From the NCBI GenBank assembly GCA_005191425.1, contig SUPR01000044.1, positions 1-28,023 of the forward strand: 28,023 nucleotides of DNA, in the 5' to 3' direction. The translations under genes were made by a program, and so were the position numbers. Shown piece after piece: positions 7,306 to 20,854 of the stretch (position 1 is the stretch's first letter; every line of letters starts with the position of its first letter). Source of the stretch: Candidatus Helarchaeota ASGARD archaeon Hel_GB_B. GTDB lineage: Archaea; Asgardarchaeota; Lokiarchaeia; Helarchaeales; HEL-GB-B. The notes under the pieces are model-generated. The model was given only the letters and a program-made list of their open reading frames with translations. It was not told where the DNA came from and did no database searches.

Positions 7306-8001
7306 TTAAGAACCATATTTTTTAATATAATTTTTAAATTGTTTATATTTTTCTGAGTTAATTACAATTTTATTTTCAATCGTTTTGTTATATAAAATAT
7401 CATAGATCTCTTTTATTTTTAAGATAGAATAACATTTTAATCCAGAATTTTCCAGGTATTTTTCGGCAGAAATATTATTTTCCATTTTTTCTTGGCGGTC
7501 AAGAAGAACAAGAATTCCTACAAATTCAAGATTATTTACATCAGAATTTTTTTTAATTTTTTCAATAATATTAATTTTAGTTAATCCTGTTGTTAATACA
7601 TCATCAACGATAAGGATTTGGTCATTATCCATAAATTTGCCTATGAGCCATTTCTCTTTTTTATCGCCATATTTTTTTATCTCTTTTCGGTCATAGCCCC
7701 ATCTTTTATTTACGTTATATAAATTATATAGTTGCATACAAATTGCTGCAGATAACGAAATACCTTTGTACGCAGGTCCAAAAATAAGGTCAAAAGAATC
7801 TAACCCAATATAATCATGAATAAAATTTGCAAAGACCCTGGATATAGATACTAAGCCCTCACCATCCATTACAATATTGGCTAAATTAAAGAAATATGGG
7901 CTAATCCTATTGCTTTTTAATCTAAAATTGCCAAATAATAACCCACCTTTCTTTATAATAAATTGAATGACTTCCAAATCTGAATTTTTCTTATTTTCCA
8001 T
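7306..8001 (-). CDS. pyrE: Orotate phosphoribosyltransferase
   Basis: FG.F.LKS.R.SPYFFN, GPAYKGI, DRKE.K.YG and PRPP-binding motif ILIVDDVLTTG. Confidence 0.95.
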   Translation of the reverse strand: MENKKNSDLEVIQFIIKKGGLLFGNFRLKSNRISPYFFNLANIVMDGEGLVSISRVFANFIHDYIGLDSFDLIFGPAYKGISLSAAICMQLYNLYNVNKRWGYDRKEIKKYGDKKEKWLIGKFMDNDQILIVDDVLTTGLTKINIIEKIKKNSDVNNLEFVGILVLLDRQEKMENNISAEKYLENSGLKCYSILKIKEIYDILYNKTIENKIVINSEKYKQFKNYIKKYGS

Positions 8002-10423: not shown

Positions 10424-11631
10424 TTGGACAATAATGAAAAAAAAGAAAACAACAGGAATTATCTGTGCTTCGAGAACTGGAAAATATAATTAATAAAAAA
10501 AATTTTAATATAAACGAACAACGAATTTTTAACAAAATTCATATCCAATCAAAATCTTTTATTTACATAGTAAAAAAGAATATAAATAAAAATGGTTTGA
10601 AAGTTTCAGAAAATATTAAAAAATTTAATAAAATCGTTGAACTTAATTTAAATAATTGTGGTTTAGACATTCTTCCAGATTCATTTGACAATTTAATTAA
10701 TCTTAAAAATCTTAATCTAAAGGAAAATAAATTAAAAACTCTTCCAGATTCATTTAGAGGACTTAAATCACTTAAAATACTTGATTTGGAAGATAATTAT
10801 TTGGCATCCCTTCCAAGATCTTTTAGCAAATTAAAATCACTCCAAATACTTAATTTGTGTGATAATCTCTTCACGGATTTCCCTGAACCAATATTAAAAA
10901 TGGAAAATCTTCAAACATTAGATTTAAGTAATAATAAGTTAACAGCGCTTCCAGATTTTTCGGGCAATTTAATAAATTTAAAAAAATTAAATTTAGAGAA
11001 TAACCGATTAACAGTTCTTTTGAAGTCATTTTGTGAATTACAATCACTTAAAAAATTAGATTTAAGTTTAAATAAATTAAAGACTCTTCCAAAATCTTTT
11101 GACCATCTAATAAAACTTAAAAAACTTTATTTAGAAGCTAATGAACTAATAAATCTTTCAGAGATCTTATGTAATTAACTTAACCTTAAAGAACTTGACT
11201 TAGAAGCAAATCATCTATTAACTCTACCAGATTCTATTGGTAATCTAATTAATCTCAAGAAACTTAATTTAAGAGAGAATCAACTAGTATCACTTCCAGA
11301 ATCTTTTGGTAATTTAATTAAACTCGAAAATCTCGATTTAAAGGGAAATAAATTAACAGTCCTTCCAAAATCTATTGGACAACTAATTAACCTAAAAATA
11401 CTTAATTTAGAAGCAAACCAACTATCAACTTTACCGGATTCATTTAGGAATTTAAAGTTAATACAAGAAATTAATTTAATTGATAACCAATTAAAAGCGC
11501 TCCCAAAATTCTTATTTAATTTGCCAAAATTAAAAAATTTATTTTTGAATGGAAATCCATTGAATGACAAATCTATTGTGATTTTAAAGGAATTAAAGAA
11601 TAAAGGAGTTAATATAGATACGATATCTTAA
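10424..11631 (+). pseudogene. Disrupted leucine-rich-repeat protein gene (about 14 x 23-aa LRRs)
   Basis: ORF 10465-11178 stops at TAA 11176-11178, but the same frame stays open for 150 more codons of in-register LRRs to TAA 11629-11631. A probable upstream start (SD AGGTGA 10412-10417, TTG 10424) is out of frame across an A8 run at 10437-10444. Confidence 0.8.
10633..11562 (+). repeat. Coding tandem repeat, 69-nt / 23-aa LRR units (LxxLxLxxNxLxxLPxxFxxLxx)
   Basis: Counted 13 full units plus a capping unit by hand. The period is unbroken across the internal stop. Confidence 0.9.
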
Positions 11632-12686: not shown

Positions 12687-13637
12687 TTGGAAGATAATTT
12701 TGATGAAGTTAATAAAAATGCTAAAAAAGTTTTGAAAATCGTATTTACCGGACTAGACAATGCTGGTAAAACATCTATTTTAAATATATTACAAAAGCAA
12801 TATTCTAAATTGGGCTCTTCCTTAAAACCTACGACAGGTATTAATCGCAATACAATAAATTTCTTGGGATATAATATAGTTAATTGGGATTTAGGTGGAC
12901 AAGAAAAATATAGAAATGAATACCTAGATGAAGAATCTCGAGTATTTGAAGATACAGACTTGCTTTTTTATATAGTAGATATTACATCCAGGGAAAGGTT
13001 TTATGAATCGCTTGAATATTTTAAGAATATATTGTGGACTGCTTTTGAGTCAACAGAATTAACCACTTATCCAAATATTATAATCTGTCTCCATAAAGTG
13101 GATCCAGATATTAAAGATGATGAGTTAATTGCAGAAAATATTGAACTGGCAAAAGGTTTATTCGAAGAAAATTCGAAAAATTATAAAGTTAAATTTTTTC
13201 TAACAAGTATTTATGACGAATGGTCAATTTTTAAAGCATTTTCTTATGGTATGCAGCAGTTATCGTCAAAATTAGAAATATTAGAAAATATTTTGAAGAC
13301 CTTTGCTGAAAATACTTTTAGTGACGCTATTCTTTTATTAGATGGAAGTGCACTACCAATTGGAGAATATTATAAAGAAAAATTAGCAAGTGATATTATT
13401 AATATTTTAGCTCCTAATTTTGCGCCTTTATATGAGAGACTTGCTAAATTAAATATAAATATTGATAATATTTGGACGGAGTTTGGTGGTAAATATTCAT
13501 TATTTACTAGAATTGAAGTAAATAAACAACCATATTTTATAATTATAGTGACATTAAAAGAAAATGTTTATGAAATTTTAAGTAAATTGCCGAAATTTTC
13601 TAATGCATTAGGAAATATCCTTAAAACATTCTTTTAA
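12687..13637 (+). CDS. Small GTPase (Arf/Rag-like) fused to a C-terminal roadblock/longin-like domain
   Basis: G1 GLDNAGKT, G2 PTTG, G3 WDLGGQ, G4 HKVD, G5 TSIYD. The C-terminal ~125 aa have the helix-ILLLD...helix-strands layout of roadblock/longin domains. TTG start. Confidence 0.88.
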   Translation: MEDNFDEVNKNAKKVLKIVFTGLDNAGKTSILNILQKQYSKLGSSLKPTTGINRNTINFLGYNIVNWDLGGQEKYRNEYLDEESRVFEDTDLLFYIVDITSRERFYESLEYFKNILWTAFESTELTTYPNIIICLHKVDPDIKDDELIAENIELAKGLFEENSKNYKVKFFLTSIYDEWSIFKAFSYGMQQLSSKLEILENILKTFAENTFSDAILLLDGSALPIGEYYKEKLASDIINILAPNFAPLYERLAKLNINIDNIWTEFGGKYSLFTRIEVNKQPYFIIIVTLKENVYEILSKLPKFSNALGNILKTFF

Positions 13638-13664: not shown

Positions 13665-16232
13665 TTACACAGATAATTTATCTAATTTAAATGAAATAAA
13701 GCGGGAAATATAAATTTTTTTCTCCGTTTCTTGGATTTTTAGATAGTTTAGTAAATATTCTACCTCATTTTCTGTCAAATCATATATTTTAAAGAAAATT
13801 ATATCCAAAATTGCTGTATACTTTTTTAAATCCATATTAGATGGCGAATTAACTGAATTATTCTTAATTTCAATTATTTTACTTACAATTTTATTAATTA
13901 TATTTACATATTCTTTTGAAAAATAAATTGGAAATTTTAACAAAACTTCTTTATCAATTTGTAATAAATTACCATGTGTTTTTGAATTTTTGAAATAAAA
14001 AAATGCCAATTTTGAATTAAAAAGACCTAAAAGATATAATGAATAGATTTTACTTCTTAATAAAATAAAGTTCACCCCTTGATCCATAAAATAAGAAATG
14101 GGTACTAATGAAAATTTCGGATAAGGGGTTTTTCTGACAGAAATTATTTTATTTTTTGACTCAAAAATCTCCATTTTTCTAGGCCTGTGGAGGCCATATG
14201 GTTTTTTATCAGAAGTAATAATTGCTTGGAATTGGTCAAGGTGCTTGATTAAATTCGGATAATTTAATTGTATTTCATTTTTTATTTTTAAAATAGCATT
14301 TTTGTTTTTAATTAAATTAATATCATTTTTATCATAATCGAAATAATGTTTTGATACATAAATTATCCACTTGTCATTTTTCTTTTTATAATAAAATGGT
14401 CCAATATCATGAGGTTCGTAGAATGGTTTTATAAATTTTAATTCTTTTTCAGTTAAATTTAATTTTTTTAATTCTTTATTGGAAATTACTTGAATTCCAT
14501 CACCGATATTAAATTTATAATTTAAATTATTATTTAAAGTTTTTAGATGCGATTTTTTAACATTTTTCTGTGGTATAACTAATCCTTGTATTATCTGGTT
14601 AGTAGGTATATTAAAATTCTTTTTTTCTTCCATTTTTTGTAGGATATTTAGTGTAATTTTATCTATAAATTGTATGTTATCTAAATTTGAGATTTTAAGT
14701 AGTTTAGTTTCACATTCAATTCCTTTGATATTTTTGCCGCTCATTAATACTTTTGATATATCATTAATTGAAACATTGGGGTTTAGTATGGAAATAATTT
14801 TAATGAAATAATTAGAGTTATTAAATAGATTTTGATATTTTTGAAGTATTAAAATAGAGTTATGCTGACCAGATGCATCACTAAATATTTTGTATTCGTT
14901 GAATTCTACTACCTTATGTATAATTGAGCTATGAAGTATTTTTTTTCTTAGTTTATTTCCAAATGTTCTATTTTTCCAGTAATCCATTACAATAAAGCCT
15001 AAATACCCTTTATTTTTAAGAATATCAAGACTTCGTTCTATAAAAAAATAAAAAATGTCCATCTTTTGTTCATAATAGTCCTTGACTACTGGTGAAAGTT
15101 TATAAAGTCTAAATTTTTCTTTATTACCTCTAATTTCTGTAAAATATGGGGGATTTCCTATTATAATATCGAAACCCTTATTTTTTTTATAATTAAGGTC
15201 GTTGCTTACTTGAAAATAATTATAAAAAAATTCAATACATGAAATTACAGGTTTATTTTTAATTAAAATATTGTAATTTAGATTGTTACTTAAAATATAA
15301 TTTTGAGATTTAGTTAATACTTTATTTTTTATCTTTTTTTTCATTCGTTGTAATTTTAATATTAAATTTTTATCTATATTTTCATTGTAATTATAAATTA
15401 TGGTTTGATATAATGAAAACAATTCTTTAAGTTCGTCAGAAAGATTTTCTATTATAAATTTAGAAATCTTAAAATCAATTAGAAAATCAGCATTTATTAA
15501 ATTCAAATCCAAGATTGGTAGTAATATGTTTATAAAATTGGTAATATCAGATAAATTCAATTTATTTTTAACAAACTTCAAAATTTTATATGATAAATTC
15601 AATTTTGTAAGAATTATTGCATTTGGATCTAAATCTATTCCATGGATATGTCTCATTATAATAAGATAAATCAAATTTTGGTCATTATTTAAGCCTAATT
15701 GCCTTTTATACTCGAAAATTTTTTGATTTAATGTTTTTAACGTAATGGCGTCCATCAAATTATTGTTATCATTTATTTTTTCAAATAATTTTTCAATTTT
15801 CTTATATTTATTCCATATCATATTAAAAGCTGATATTAAAAATGTCCCTGAACCACATGCGGGGTCTAAAATTTTAATATTTACAATTTTTTCAATTGTC
15901 TTATCACAATTTTTAAAATCATTATGATTAAATTCTTTTATAAGTATAGATATTAATTTATCAAATAGAATTCCAATGGTATTTTTAATAATATATTCAA
16001 TAATATATTTAGGAGTATAATAAATTCCCGAGTTTTTTCTTATATTTTCTGAATTTAAATAAAATTCATATAATTTTCCCAATATATCCTCATTTTTGCC
16101 AAAAATATTCTGGAATCTTTTATAAATTTCATCGACCTTTTTTAAATCCTTATCTAAGTCGATTGTAGGTAAAGAAATAAAAAAACGGTTAATAGCTTCA
16201 ATATCTTCCACTGATTTTATAGACAACTTCAT
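13665..16232 (-). CDS. N6-adenine DNA methyltransferase (Eco57I/TaqI-like, gamma class) with C-terminal target-recognition region
   Basis: GIYYTP, ILDPACGSGTFL (motif I), GIDLDPNA, FDIIIGNPPY (motif IV) and TaqI-C-like YLLGLFNSKL. No nuclease domain recognised. Confidence 0.9.
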   Translation of the reverse strand: MKLSIKSVEDIEAINRFFISLPTIDLDKDLKKVDEIYKRFQNIFGKNEDILGKLYEFYLNSENIRKNSGIYYTPKYIIEYIIKNTIGILFDKLISILIKEFNHNDFKNCDKTIEKIVNIKILDPACGSGTFLISAFNMIWNKYKKIEKLFEKINDNNNLMDAITLKTLNQKIFEYKRQLGLNNDQNLIYLIIMRHIHGIDLDPNAIILTKLNLSYKILKFVKNKLNLSDITNFINILLPILDLNLINADFLIDFKISKFIIENLSDELKELFSLYQTIIYNYNENIDKNLILKLQRMKKKIKNKVLTKSQNYILSNNLNYNILIKNKPVISCIEFFYNYFQVSNDLNYKKNKGFDIIIGNPPYFTEIRGNKEKFRLYKLSPVVKDYYEQKMDIFYFFIERSLDILKNKGYLGFIVMDYWKNRTFGNKLRKKILHSSIIHKVVEFNEYKIFSDASGQHNSILILQKYQNLFNNSNYFIKIISILNPNVSINDISKVLMSGKNIKGIECETKLLKISNLDNIQFIDKITLNILQKMEEKKNFNIPTNQIIQGLVIPQKNVKKSHLKTLNNNLNYKFNIGDGIQVISNKELKKLNLTEKELKFIKPFYEPHDIGPFYYKKKNDKWIIYVSKHYFDYDKNDINLIKNKNAILKIKNEIQLNYPNLIKHLDQFQAIITSDKKPYGLHRPRKMEIFESKNKIISVRKTPYPKFSLVPISYFMDQGVNFILLRSKIYSLYLLGLFNSKLAFFYFKNSKTHGNLLQIDKEVLLKFPIYFSKEYVNIINKIVSKIIEIKNNSVNSPSNMDLKKYTAILDIIFFKIYDLTENEVEYLLNYLKIQETEKKIYISRFISFKLDKLSV

Positions 16233-16466: not shown

Positions 16467-17828
16467 ATGCCACCAAAAGTATGTTTTATGCAGTTAAGTA
16501 GTTGCTGGGGCTGCTATCAGTCTCTATTTGATGACTACGGAACTGATCTAGTAAATATATTAACGAATATAGAAATAGTTTATTTTCCTGCGGTAGTAGA
16601 TATAAAACACAAAGATTTTGAAGCATTACCGGATGGTTCTGTTGATGTTGGTTTTATTGAAGGAAATATAAGGACTACAGAAGATCTTCATAATGCGAAG
16701 TTAGTCAGGCAAAAGTGTAAGGTAGTTGTTGCAATGGGAAGTTGTGCTTGTTTTGGAGGAGTTCCCAGCCTTGCAAATTTATACACTAAAGAGGAATTAA
16801 TTGAGCGAAAATATACAACTGCAGATACAATTGTAGAAACAAAAGGATACCCAACCGAAAATGTTCCAGATATTTTAGAGAGCATCCCAGCAGTTCATGA
16901 AGTTATTGATGTAGATATATGGATACCTGGATGCCCTCCAATAACAGATCATCTCGTTGCAGCTTTTAAGTACATTCTTGCTTTACCATCTACGACCCCA
17001 TCAGATAAAAATATTTGTGATATTTGTGAATTGAGAGGCGATAAATGTCTATTAAATAGAGGAATATTATGTTTTGGTGCTTTATCAAGTGCAACATGCG
17101 AATTAAAATGCCCAAATAAGGGCGAAGTATGTTATGGTTGTACAGGCGCTACTAAAAATATTGCAAAAGCTGAAGCTAAGAAATTAATAGATTTAGTTTC
17201 TACTAAAGAACTGACTGAAACGGAAGTAGGGGATATTCTTAAATTTATCACATTATATGCAAAGATCCCAAATCTTGGTTATATGTATGTTAAAGGTGAT
17301 CCACTCCAAGCTTTAGGGCATAAAAGAGCAGATTATACAATTAAAACTGTTGAAGGTACCGGCATTAAGGCATTTGATTTGAGTGGATTCCCAGAGGAAA
17401 TTGGAATTTTGTTATATGCTGTAAGTAAAAGCAAACATTTCCATTATACAGAGCAAACAGTCTGTGCAACATGTCCTAGAAATAAAGAAGATAAATCGTT
17501 GAAGGGGCTAAAAAGAGATTATGAAGGTGGGGTAAAAGACCAAGAAAGATGCCTTTTAGAACAAGGATATTTATGTATGGGAATTGTGACTAAAGGCGGA
17601 TGCGGGGCTTTATGCATTAAAGCAAATTGTCCATGTCTTGGTTGTTATGGGCCCTCTCCTAATATCGTAGATGCGGGGGGTAAATTTACCACATCAATTG
17701 CATCAATAAGTACTGCTCTAGGAGTGCCTGATATAATTGAAAAGATTCCTGATCCTGCAGGTCAATTTTATAGATTTATGACCTCAGTATCACCATTTAA
17801 AAAGAAACAAAATGATTCTGGGATGTGA
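16467..17828 (+). CDS. mvhG: Group 3c-type [NiFe]-hydrogenase small subunit (MvhG/VhuG-like) with duplicated Fe-S module
   Basis: SCWGC, GSCA.FGG.P.LANL and IPGCPP, followed by two 8-Cys modules and KIPDPAGQFYRF. Confidence 0.88.
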   Translation: MPPKVCFMQLSSCWGCYQSLFDDYGTDLVNILTNIEIVYFPAVVDIKHKDFEALPDGSVDVGFIEGNIRTTEDLHNAKLVRQKCKVVVAMGSCACFGGVPSLANLYTKEELIERKYTTADTIVETKGYPTENVPDILESIPAVHEVIDVDIWIPGCPPITDHLVAAFKYILALPSTTPSDKNICDICELRGDKCLLNRGILCFGALSSATCELKCPNKGEVCYGCTGATKNIAKAEAKKLIDLVSTKELTETEVGDILKFITLYAKIPNLGYMYVKGDPLQALGHKRADYTIKTVEGTGIKAFDLSGFPEEIGILLYAVSKSKHFHYTEQTVCATCPRNKEDKSLKGLKRDYEGGVKDQERCLLEQGYLCMGIVTKGGCGALCIKANCPCLGCYGPSPNIVDAGGKFTTSIASISTALGVPDIIEKIPDPAGQFYRFMTSVSPFKKKQNDSGM

Positions 17829-17832
17829 TTAA

Positions 17833-18330
17833 ATGTCTATGGATTTAGAATTTAGGAGAATAGTTCTTGGTAAATATATGGACTCAACTTTACATTATTG
17901 TTTACAATGTAGTAGATGTAATGATGTATGCCCTGTTAATGAAGTATCTGATGGCGCATATAACCCTCGTTCAGTAATTCTTAATGCATTTTTAGGGCTG
18001 AAAGAAAACCTTATAGGTAAACCAAATAATATCGCAGTATGGGGCTGTCAAATTTGCGATACTTGTAATTTAACTTGCCCACAAGATATAGAATTGACAG
18101 ATATATTTTATATAGTTAAAAATCTATCAGTTCAAGCAGGAGAAGCTCCCGAATATTATGTAATTCAAGCTAAGGCAATATTAGAAAGCGGAAAAGCTAT
18201 TCCACTACAGACAGCAATTGAAAGACGAAGAAGTCAAATGGGACTTCCTGAAGTACCAACTGGATTCGAAGATGACGTAAAAATAATACTAAAAGAAACT
18301 GAATTGGAGGAAAAATTATCAAAATATTAG
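17833..18330 (+). CDS. hdrC: Heterodisulfide reductase subunit C (2x[4Fe-4S])
   Basis: CLQCSRCNDVCP and WGCQICDTCNLTCPQDI; lies directly upstream of hdrB. Confidence 0.9.
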   Translation: MSMDLEFRRIVLGKYMDSTLHYCLQCSRCNDVCPVNEVSDGAYNPRSVILNAFLGLKENLIGKPNNIAVWGCQICDTCNLTCPQDIELTDIFYIVKNLSVQAGEAPEYYVIQAKAILESGKAIPLQTAIERRRSQMGLPEVPTGFEDDVKIILKETELEEKLSKY

Positions 18331-18340
18331 GGTGATAAAA

Positions 18341-19219
18341 ATGTCAGAATATAAATTATTTGCTGGGTGTGTAATTCCAAATAGATTACCGTTTCTAGAA
18401 CTTGCATCAAGAAAAGTTTTCGAAAAATTGGGCGTCCAGACTTCTGATGCACCATTTAGCTGTTGTCCAGACCCAGTAGGATTCCAAAGTACTGATAAAG
18501 AAAGTTGGCTTGCCTTAGGAGCCCGTAATTTATGTATTGCCGAAGAAGAGGGCAAAGATATAGTTTCACTCTGTAATGGTTGCACTCAAACTTTAAAAGC
18601 AGTTCAATATGATATCGCAAGAGCTTCTGAACTTGAAAAACAACGAATTTCAGATATTTTAGCAAAAGTAAATAAAGAATATAAAGGCTCAATTACAGTT
18701 AAACACTTTGTACAAGTTCTAATTGAAGATGTTGGTATTGATAAAATTAAAAGTATGATAAAAAAACCGATAGAACTTAAAATTGCATGCCATACAGGAT
18801 GCCATTATGCCAGACCAGCTGAAGTAATGAATTGGGACGATCCGGAACATCCAATTTATCTTAGACAATTGGTCGAAGCTTGCGGAGCTACCCCTGTTGA
18901 TTATGAAGAGGAAGTCTTATGCTGTGGGGCTGGAGCAGGTAATGCAAAAACAGAATATGGACTTGGCGTTCTGAAACGCAAATTGGATAGCGTAATTTCT
19001 GCTGGTGCTGATTGCATTTGTGTAGTCTGTCCAGCTTGTTTTACTCAATTCGATACTCAACAACGAGCTTTATCAAAAATGGTAGAAAAGGAATATAAAA
19101 TTCCAGTACTCTATCTAACAGAATTAATGGCGCTAGGAATGGGCTTTACTCCAAAAGATTTAAATTTAAAATATCATGGAGTAAAAACTAAAAATATCAT
19201 GGAAAAAATTGGACTTTAA
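18341..19219 (+). CDS. hdrB: Heterodisulfide reductase subunit B (two CCG domains)
   Basis: F.GC.IP, SCCP, LCNGC, HTGCHY.RP, CCGAG, CPAC..QFD and PVLY.TEL..L. ATG 18341 follows SD GGGTGA; the ORF track starts at GTG 18332. Confidence 0.93.
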   Translation: MSEYKLFAGCVIPNRLPFLELASRKVFEKLGVQTSDAPFSCCPDPVGFQSTDKESWLALGARNLCIAEEEGKDIVSLCNGCTQTLKAVQYDIARASELEKQRISDILAKVNKEYKGSITVKHFVQVLIEDVGIDKIKSMIKKPIELKIACHTGCHYARPAEVMNWDDPEHPIYLRQLVEACGATPVDYEEEVLCCGAGAGNAKTEYGLGVLKRKLDSVISAGADCICVVCPACFTQFDTQQRALSKMVEKEYKIPVLYLTELMALGMGFTPKDLNLKYHGVKTKNIMEKIGL

Positions 19220-20407: not shown

Positions 20408-20854
20408 TTAACTTTTTTCTTTTTCCCACTTTTCTCGTTTTTCTTTTTTCATAGGGTTTGGGCCCAATTCGCGTATTTCCTCAACATATTCTTTTACTAG
20501 TTCCGTTAATTCAACACTATCAGAAGCAGAAATCCATTGAAGCTTAACACGATTTGGATTAATTCCAAATTGAGAAATTAGCTTTTGAACGATAGGAATT
20601 TTGCGTTCTGTTTTATAATTGCCTTCCACATAATGACAATCACCAGGAAAGCATCCACAGATAAGAATCCCATCTGCACCATTAGCAAGAGCCTTTAAAA
20701 CAAATGTGGCATCAACTCTACCAGAACACATTACTCTAATTATTCTTAGATTTGCGGGACGTTGCATTCTTGATGTACCTGCTGCATCGGCTCCAGCATA
20801 GGAACACCAATTACAAAAAATTCCAAGGATGTAAGGATCAAACTCTTCAGGCAT
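20408..20854 (-). CDS. mvhD: Hydrogenase iron-sulfur subunit MvhD ([2Fe-2S])
   Basis: FCNWCSYAGAD.AG..R, RIIRVMCSGRVD and GC.PGDCHY.EGN. Confidence 0.95.
   Translation of the reverse strand: MPEEFDPYILGIFCNWCSYAGADAAGTSRMQRPANLRIIRVMCSGRVDATFVLKALANGADGILICGCFPGDCHYVEGNYKTERKIPIVQKLISQFGINPNRVKLQWISASDSVELTELVKEYVEEIRELGPNPMKKEKREKWEKEKS

Follow-up and report, generated by a model that had tools for sequence, protein, structure and literature searches.

What becomes of the electron path in a [NiFe] hydrogenase whose small subunit carries its iron-sulfur (Fe-S) module twice? The question is raised by a long form of mvhG/vhuG at positions 16467-17828 on the forward strand of contig SUPR01000044.1 from Candidatus Helarchaeota ASGARD archaeon Hel_GB_B, where we analyzed a stretch of 28,023 nucleotides (nt), here called the window. 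Flavin-based electron bifurcation has its textbook H2 input in the group 3c Mvh/Vhu hydrogenases, and in Lokiarchaeia these group 3c enzymes have been proposed to do most of the H2 handling in a syntrophic way of life that is linked to eukaryotic origins. The gene encodes a small subunit, 453 residues long, for a group 3c-type [NiFe(Se)] hydrogenase. This long MvhG is genuine, and it represents a variant of a known subunit that is conserved across the class.

The product of the open reading frame (ORF) is an MvhG/VhuG-type [NiFe]-hydrogenase small subunit. Pfam places Oxidored_q6 (PF01058), the NuoB/hydrogenase small-subunit domain, at residues 13-168 (E 5.9e-26), and the best NCBIfam model for the whole protein is VhuG (E 1.3e-73), which matches in three stretches and reaches 247.7 bits against a curated cut-off of 450, its match being split by an insert. 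The best solved structure in a sequence search of the PDB is MvhG chain 5ODC_E (E 7e-59), whose 299 residues agree with the statement in the initial annotation that canonical MvhG has about 300 residues and a single module. This match falls into two stretches, residues 4-188 and 309-438, skipping the first of the two Fe-S modules; the N-terminal domain (N-domain) aligns to 5ODC_E residues 3-181 and the second stretch to residues 153-288. Related families fall short of their NCBIfam cut-offs. HydD scores 121.8 against 500 and ShyD 93.6 against 460, below what a group 3b assignment calls for, and no sulfhydrogenase beta or gamma subunit genes, the usual HydD/ShyD context, were seen among the neighbors of this gene. 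FrhG scores 65.6 bits against 245.5 and matches only residues 4-100 of the N-domain.

The protein can be divided into three parts. An N-terminal flavodoxin-like domain (residues 1-173, nt 16467-16985) carries the proximal-cluster cysteines C13, C16, C93 and C156. It is followed by an insert (residues 174-328, nt 16986-17450) made up of an Fe-S domain copy at residues ~177-268 and a linker at residues 269-328, and then by the canonical C-terminal domain (residues 329-453, nt 17451-17825). The two eight-cysteine modules described in the initial annotation match the ORF exactly, both in position and in spacing. Module 1 (nt 17016-17141) reads C-x2-C-x6-C-x7-C-x8-C-x3-C-x6-C-x2-C, and module 2 (nt 17463-17645) has the same spacing with x25 instead of x6 after the first CxxC. 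Because of this x25 loop, the tail that follows and the 5ODC_E match that passes over module 1, module 2 is the canonical MvhG C-terminal domain (C-domain) and module 1 is an inserted extra copy. Within the insert, a distal-type putative cluster site, D1 (nt 17016-17072, C184-x2-C187-x6-C194-x7-C202), precedes a medial-type site, M1 (nt 17097-17141, C211-x3-C215-x6-C222-x2-C225). Their counterparts in the C-domain are D2 (C333, C336, C362 and C370) and M2 (C379, C383, C390 and C393).

The long form is widespread but, among the genomes sampled, confined to one class. A word-indexed search returned at least 120 long-form clusters of 448-491 residues, with coverage of at least 97% and identities of 40-99% to the protein described here, and an exhaustive search of 1.84 billion representatives returned 12 clusters at the 50% level. 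A gap in score, 284 versus 211 bits, separates the long forms from the canonical ~300-residue forms, which match in two pieces. All named members of the long-form clusters are Asgard metagenome-assembled genomes. In a sample of 301 genomes of the phylum, classified by GTDB, full-length matches were present in 72 of the 77 Lokiarchaeia genomes, often as two or three paralogues per genome of ~470 and ~440 residues. None was found in the 224 genomes of other Asgard classes, where the best match had an E value of 7.4e-55 or weaker and the matches listed were restricted to the N-domain, in frames no longer than 341 residues. Lokiarchaeia as defined by GTDB, Helarchaeales-like genomes included, thus have the long form as their standard. 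Submitter names would suggest a wider spread through Thor-, Hermod-, Hod- and Heimdallarchaeota. We did not rely on them; a single 90% cluster bears three different submitter archaeota names, and long forms occurred only in Lokiarchaeia in the GTDB-based sample. Eleven distant matches of at least 380 residues were also inspected with a loosened motif, and nine of them carried one full module and two (P0221 and P0232) none. The nine were rejected as instances of the same duplication, being different fusions with one module each. The initial annotation had named, as grounds for rejecting its proposal, a long form already described as the standard of the clade. Half of this applies: the long form is the norm within its class, although we found no description of an extended Asgard MvhG in the searchable full-text literature, a search to which subscription-only papers were not open; the Asgard hydrogenase papers that could be searched treat the enzyme as a plain MvhADG-HdrABC or classify large subunits alone.

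How the doubled module arose can be approached by comparing its copies. A BLASTP self-comparison aligns 70 residues of one half of the protein with the other half at 33% identity (E 4e-8). In a tree of module-1, module-2 and canonical C-domains, the module-1 copies form a single clade with support 99, on a stem branch of ~1.0, and module 1 is evolving faster than module 2. A quick free tree separated modules 1 and 2, but a tree constrained to join them lies 68.9 log-likelihood units above it (p-AU 0.988), which marks the quick tree as the result of a poor search. Because the module tree has only 107 columns, we take this not as proof but as consistent with the insert being a diverged tandem copy of the C-terminal domain, formed by internal duplication in the lineage. 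An ancestral tandem duplication of the two-cluster C-domain would have supplied both the extra Fe-S domain and the linker, and would have placed them after the proximal-cluster domain and ahead of the canonical medial/distal one. The self-alignment and the 5ODC_E match bear out the earlier description of an MvhG-type small subunit with a truly duplicated two-cluster module, and the trees for which the initial annotation called point the same way.

Structure prediction suggests that the duplication left the canonical architecture in place. An AlphaFold2 model of the full protein, built on 62 homologues, has a mean predicted local distance difference test score (pLDDT) of 84.8 and a predicted template modeling score (pTM) of 0.84. 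Taken as a single body, its N-domain and module 2 match 5ODC_E (Z 30.1, root mean square deviation 2.9 Å), with 290 of the 298 target residues aligned, spanning model residues 3-449, at 39% identity. The two domains are thus predicted to keep their canonical mutual arrangement, with the insert as an additional body, and in the alignment the canonical ~300-residue forms have one clean gap of ~150 residues where the insert sits. The initial annotation had asked whether the module 1 region folds at all, and the prediction favors folding, since the insert modeled alone (residues 174-328) reaches pLDDT 88.7 and pTM 0.86. When the insert was compared exhaustively against 48,161 representative chains, its top match was the Fe-S C-domain of Pyrococcus furiosus HydD (9E15_A residues 158-244, Z 5.9, 86 residues aligned) and its second the C-domain of MvhG (5ODC_E residues 170-290, Z 5.5, 87 aligned). 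Both span insert-model residues 4-95, and the third-best match drops to Z 3.5. These Z scores are modest, which is normal for a small domain rich in cysteine, but they fall on the relatives that one would expect and stand clear of the background. The linker, a subdomain of ~60 residues, is predicted as a beta-hairpin and a helix and had no structural match among the same chains.

Conservation of the cysteines allows the clusters to be ranked. We counted ligands from an alignment of 121 long-form homologue clusters, as an exact-spacing regular expression caught both modules in just 5 of the 121, the spacing shifting by a residue. The proximal cysteines are kept in 120-121 of the homologues, and all eight of module 2 are invariant (121/121). 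The four D1 cysteines are equally invariant (121/121), and they are found likewise in eight divergent long forms (P0122-P0129) and in the long-form genes of two genomes, G147 (two genes) and G213. Each of the four M1 cysteines is present in 104-110 of the 121. At the 50% level, M1 is kept in only five of 13 long forms (the query protein, P0006, P0017, P0021, P0080 and P0122-P0129). It is absent from 24 of the 76 rows of a tree of long forms, where the proteins lacking it fall into four separate lineages around an unresolved base and the minimum number of changes is two. Since an in-register regain of four cysteines is unlikely, M1 appears to have been lost independently three or four times.

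In group 1 hydrogenase small subunits, the distal ligands come first and the medial ligands second. This homology, together with the pattern in which the M1 cysteines are lost jointly, indicates that the extra module comprises two separate four-cysteine sites. The query protein retains 20 cysteines at ligand positions, compared with 12 in canonical MvhG, and as all 20 are intact, five [4Fe-4S] clusters are predicted for it. The initial annotation had proposed two extra clusters on the same grounds. This holds for the ligands of the query, but not for the family, in which the sequences point to four clusters as the constant and to a conserved gain of one cluster, not two.

We propose that the canonical wire, from the NiFe site through the proximal cluster, medial M2 and distal D2 to MvhD/HdrA, would stay intact, and that the extra domain would supply one obligatory [4Fe-4S] cluster, D1, joined by M1 in the query protein. 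The insert begins ~12 residues past the last helix of the N-domain and ends ~11 residues ahead of the distal-cluster CxxC. From these entry and exit points of the chain, the insert would be located at the subunit's distal end, where D1 would be close to D2 and M1 would lie beyond D1, an arrangement that fits M1 being dispensable while D1 is invariant. D1 and M1 could then form a side arm through which electrons pass to or from an additional partner besides MvhD, for which ferredoxins, polyferredoxins and Hdr/Fwd-type proteins would be candidates. On this basis, the extra domain probably adds a second point at which electrons enter or leave. A complex prediction for MvhG residues 172-453 with the neighboring HdrC gave a score of 0.01 (mark 0.32) and is evidence neither way.

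Alternatively, the insert might be mainly structural, acting in docking, spacing or oligomerization, with D1 as a structural cluster, M1 decaying and catalysis running through the three-cluster wire. The joint loss of M1 in several lineages, amounting to 17 of the 121 homologues and the 24 tree rows given above, would be expected of a decaying site, and the faster evolution of module 1 behind its long stem (~1.0) agrees with this. The linker at residues 269-328, too, is conserved and modeled with confidence although it lacks Fe-S ligands. However, no long form examined lacks any of the D1 cysteines, M1 persists at its exact spacing in most lineages and in both G147 paralogues, and a purely structural role would not need the eight conserved ligands found in 104 of the 121 clusters. 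We therefore regard a mainly structural insert as unlikely, although deserving of serious thought.

The neighboring genes bear on the identity of the catalytic partner. An hdrC-like gene (17833-18330, forward, 165 residues; CoB_CoM_SS_C in NCBIfam, E 2.3e-23, and Fer4_8 in Pfam) begins 4 nt after mvhG, and an hdrB-like gene (18332-19219, forward, 295 residues; CoB_CoM_SS_B in NCBIfam, E 1.2e-88, and two stretches of CCG in Pfam) follows after 1 nt. A stand-alone mvhD (20408-20854, reverse, 148 residues; FlpD in Pfam, E 4.8e-50, and VhuD in NCBIfam, E 4.4e-38) lies 2.6 kb from mvhG on the opposite strand, so that the genomic association of the MvhG family with mvhD and hdr genes is found here as well. 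Neither a large-subunit gene nor hdrA occurs within the window. In relatives, the order mvhG-mvhA-hdrC-hdrB adjoins an mvhD-ferredoxin-fwdFDB-like cluster (loci L011 and L013) or follows DsrE genes (L015), and the orders mvhG-hdrC-hdrB-mvhA (L016) and hdrCBA-mvhD-...-mvhG (L009) also occur. L015 belongs to G147, another Lokiarchaeion, where a 435-residue paralogue heads this operon downstream of Sulf_transp and two DsrE genes. The other G147 paralogue, of 463 residues (L014, contig C1, 8999-12755, forward), has no large subunit beside it and is followed by a 577-residue Amidohydro_3 protein, which we take to be FwdA-like, and a 186-residue HdrC-like protein.

Elsewhere in the genome of Hel_GB_B there are two hydrogenase large subunits, on contigs C43 and C128. 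The one on C128 (7901-9211, reverse) is VhuA-like (NCBIfam E 1e-145), has no small subunit beside it and ends in ...IPDPIIPT, without the C-terminal DPCxxC motif. A VhuU-like ORF of 48 codons follows it (7740-7883, reverse) with an in-frame TGA at 7821-7823 (IRSYDN-TGA-LSCSAH), from which we read C128 VhuA and VhuU as a split selenocysteine [NiFeSe] large subunit. Similar VhuU-like selenocysteine ORFs (IVRCYDC-U-LSCAAH) come after mvhA in L015 and L016. The C128 large subunit shares 50-54% identity with its counterparts adjoining long mvhG in relatives, against 26% with the C43 protein, and C128 VhuA/VhuU would accordingly be the best candidate in this genome for the catalytic partner of the long MvhG. 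The large-subunit gene would then have moved out of an ancestral mvhG-mvhA-hdrC-hdrB operon. The C43 large subunit, of 448 residues and with a complete DPCISCATH C-terminus, belongs to a second hydrogenase cluster (L008, 2583-7202, forward). There it stands with a short small subunit of 248 residues and an HdrA-MvhD fusion of 844 residues, whose HdrA match starts at residue ~100 after an extra N-terminal stretch of ~100 residues.

The absence of hdrA from the window says little, because the genome has at least eight full-length HdrA paralogues elsewhere, along with 11 MvhD domains (contigs C122, C26, C167, C41 and C118; loci L020, L021, L023, L024 and L030-L032). Several of these HdrA and MvhD genes have one to three in-frame TGA codons and probably encode selenoproteins, and some HdrA frames of ~1000-1170 residues resemble tandem or fused HdrA units. 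The remainder of the window contains an 855-residue Eco57I/MmeI-type restriction-modification methylase-like gene (13665-16232, reverse), divergent from and upstream of mvhG in a stretch whose G+C is very low (0.21), as well as a Gtr1/RagA-Arf-family small GTPase (12687-13637, forward) and a leucine-rich-repeat protein (10465-11178, forward). The latter two are eukaryote-like signature proteins typical of Asgard archaea and agree with the taxonomic placement.

The gene neighborhood could also be read without a hydrogenase, with MvhG, HdrC and HdrB forming a non-bifurcating disulfide reductase module in which the extra clusters replace MvhD/HdrA as the electron inlet. The close spacing of the three genes, in a window that has neither a large-subunit gene nor hdrA, speaks for such a module, as does the company of HdrC-like genes and long mvhG in several different gene orders. 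Against it stand the conserved proximal-cluster cysteines and the entire conserved N-domain, the orphan VhuA/VhuU that is orthologous to large subunits beside long mvhG in relatives, and the many HdrA paralogues and MvhD domains of the genome, one of the latter just 2.6 kb away. We consider a non-hydrogenase module improbable, and more so than a structural insert. That the pattern reflects chance cysteines or a collapsed or chimeric contig can be dismissed with near certainty, as nothing was found in its favor, the same architecture recurs in more than 120 clusters from independent assemblies, closed genomes included, and copies just 33% identical do not stem from a recent assembly duplication.

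The reading that we favor, and hold to be somewhat better than an even bet, is that the long form is the Lokiarchaeia-type MvhG/VhuG, a subunit of a cytoplasmic group 3c-type [NiFeSe] hydrogenase with the side arm described above. Several points weigh against it. Even P0005 and P0006, at 77% identity to the query, have lost the M1 cysteines as a set. With losses recurring at such close range, the enzyme can do without a five-cluster wire, and electron flux through the outer cluster may be small. The assignment of cysteines to clusters draws on group 1 homology and joint loss and concerns predicted sites only, and where D1 and M1 lie with respect to D2 is read from chain topology only. The structural matches of the insert, at Z 5.5-5.9, are modest. 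Finally, no large-subunit gene adjoins mvhG, and genome completeness stands at 93.7%, for which reason the pairing with C128 VhuA is put forward as probable rather than established.

A more specific version of the side-arm proposal is that the extra domain is a dedicated docking and electron-transfer site for a ferredoxin, a neighboring small ferredoxin or an Fwd-type polyferredoxin, providing a second route that bypasses HdrA. We rate this as rather doubtful at present. If it were true, the enzyme could evolve H2 directly from reduced ferredoxin in syntrophic fermentation, besides its bifurcating Mvh-Hdr mode; M1 would tune the choice of partner, and the class as a whole would owe to this duplication a novelty in the H2 metabolism that is invoked for eukaryogenesis. 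In several Lokiarchaeia, long mvhG is preceded by a conserved cluster (L011 1041-5936, L012 624-7131 and L013 1955-7077) encoding MvhD, a ferredoxin of 85-86 residues, a 236-residue polyferredoxin, Molydop_binding, Molybdopterin and GXGXG-like proteins and FdhD. This cluster is a candidate source of a partner for the extra Fe-S domain.

Throughout the class, the small subunit has an extra domain predicted to bring one or two further [4Fe-4S] clusters. The electron path, and possibly the partners and direction of the enzyme, may therefore differ from the methanogen model. Cultured strains of Lokiarchaeia exist, so direct study is feasible.

Among known systems, the closest relatives of the long MvhG are methanogen small subunits, namely MvhG of the Methanothermococcus thermolithotrophicus MvhAGD-HdrABC complex (5ODC chain E), VhuG (9SFI_I) and MvhG (9SW2_E). 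The proteins share the proximal-cluster N-domain and the eight-cysteine C-domain with its x25 loop and tail, and the systems share mvhD, hdrB and hdrC as genomic company and, if the C128 pair is the partner here, a VhuA/VhuU-type selenocysteine large subunit. They differ in the 155-residue insert, with its second Fe-S domain copy and linker, which brings the Lokiarchaeia protein to 453 rather than ~300 residues and to 20 rather than 12 ligand cysteines, and in the operon, which is mvhG-(mvhA)-hdrC-hdrB here and mvhDGAB in the methanogen system. HydD/ShyD, the delta subunit of P. furiosus soluble hydrogenase I (group 3b; 9NEZ_A and 9E15_A), has a short loop after the first CxxC, as does module 1, and by sequence it is collinear with query residues 4-259, through module 1. 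In the full model, however, superposition pairs HydD with the N-domain and module 2 instead of module 1, and HydD itself has a single module. The ferredoxin-type C-terminus of FrhG and the polyferredoxins MvhB and FmdF follow the same principle, in which extra [4Fe-4S] clusters lengthen or branch the path to a partner. While those additions are ferredoxin-fold (CxxCxxCxxxCP) domains or separate proteins, the addition in the long MvhG would have arisen when the small subunit duplicated its medial/distal domain internally.

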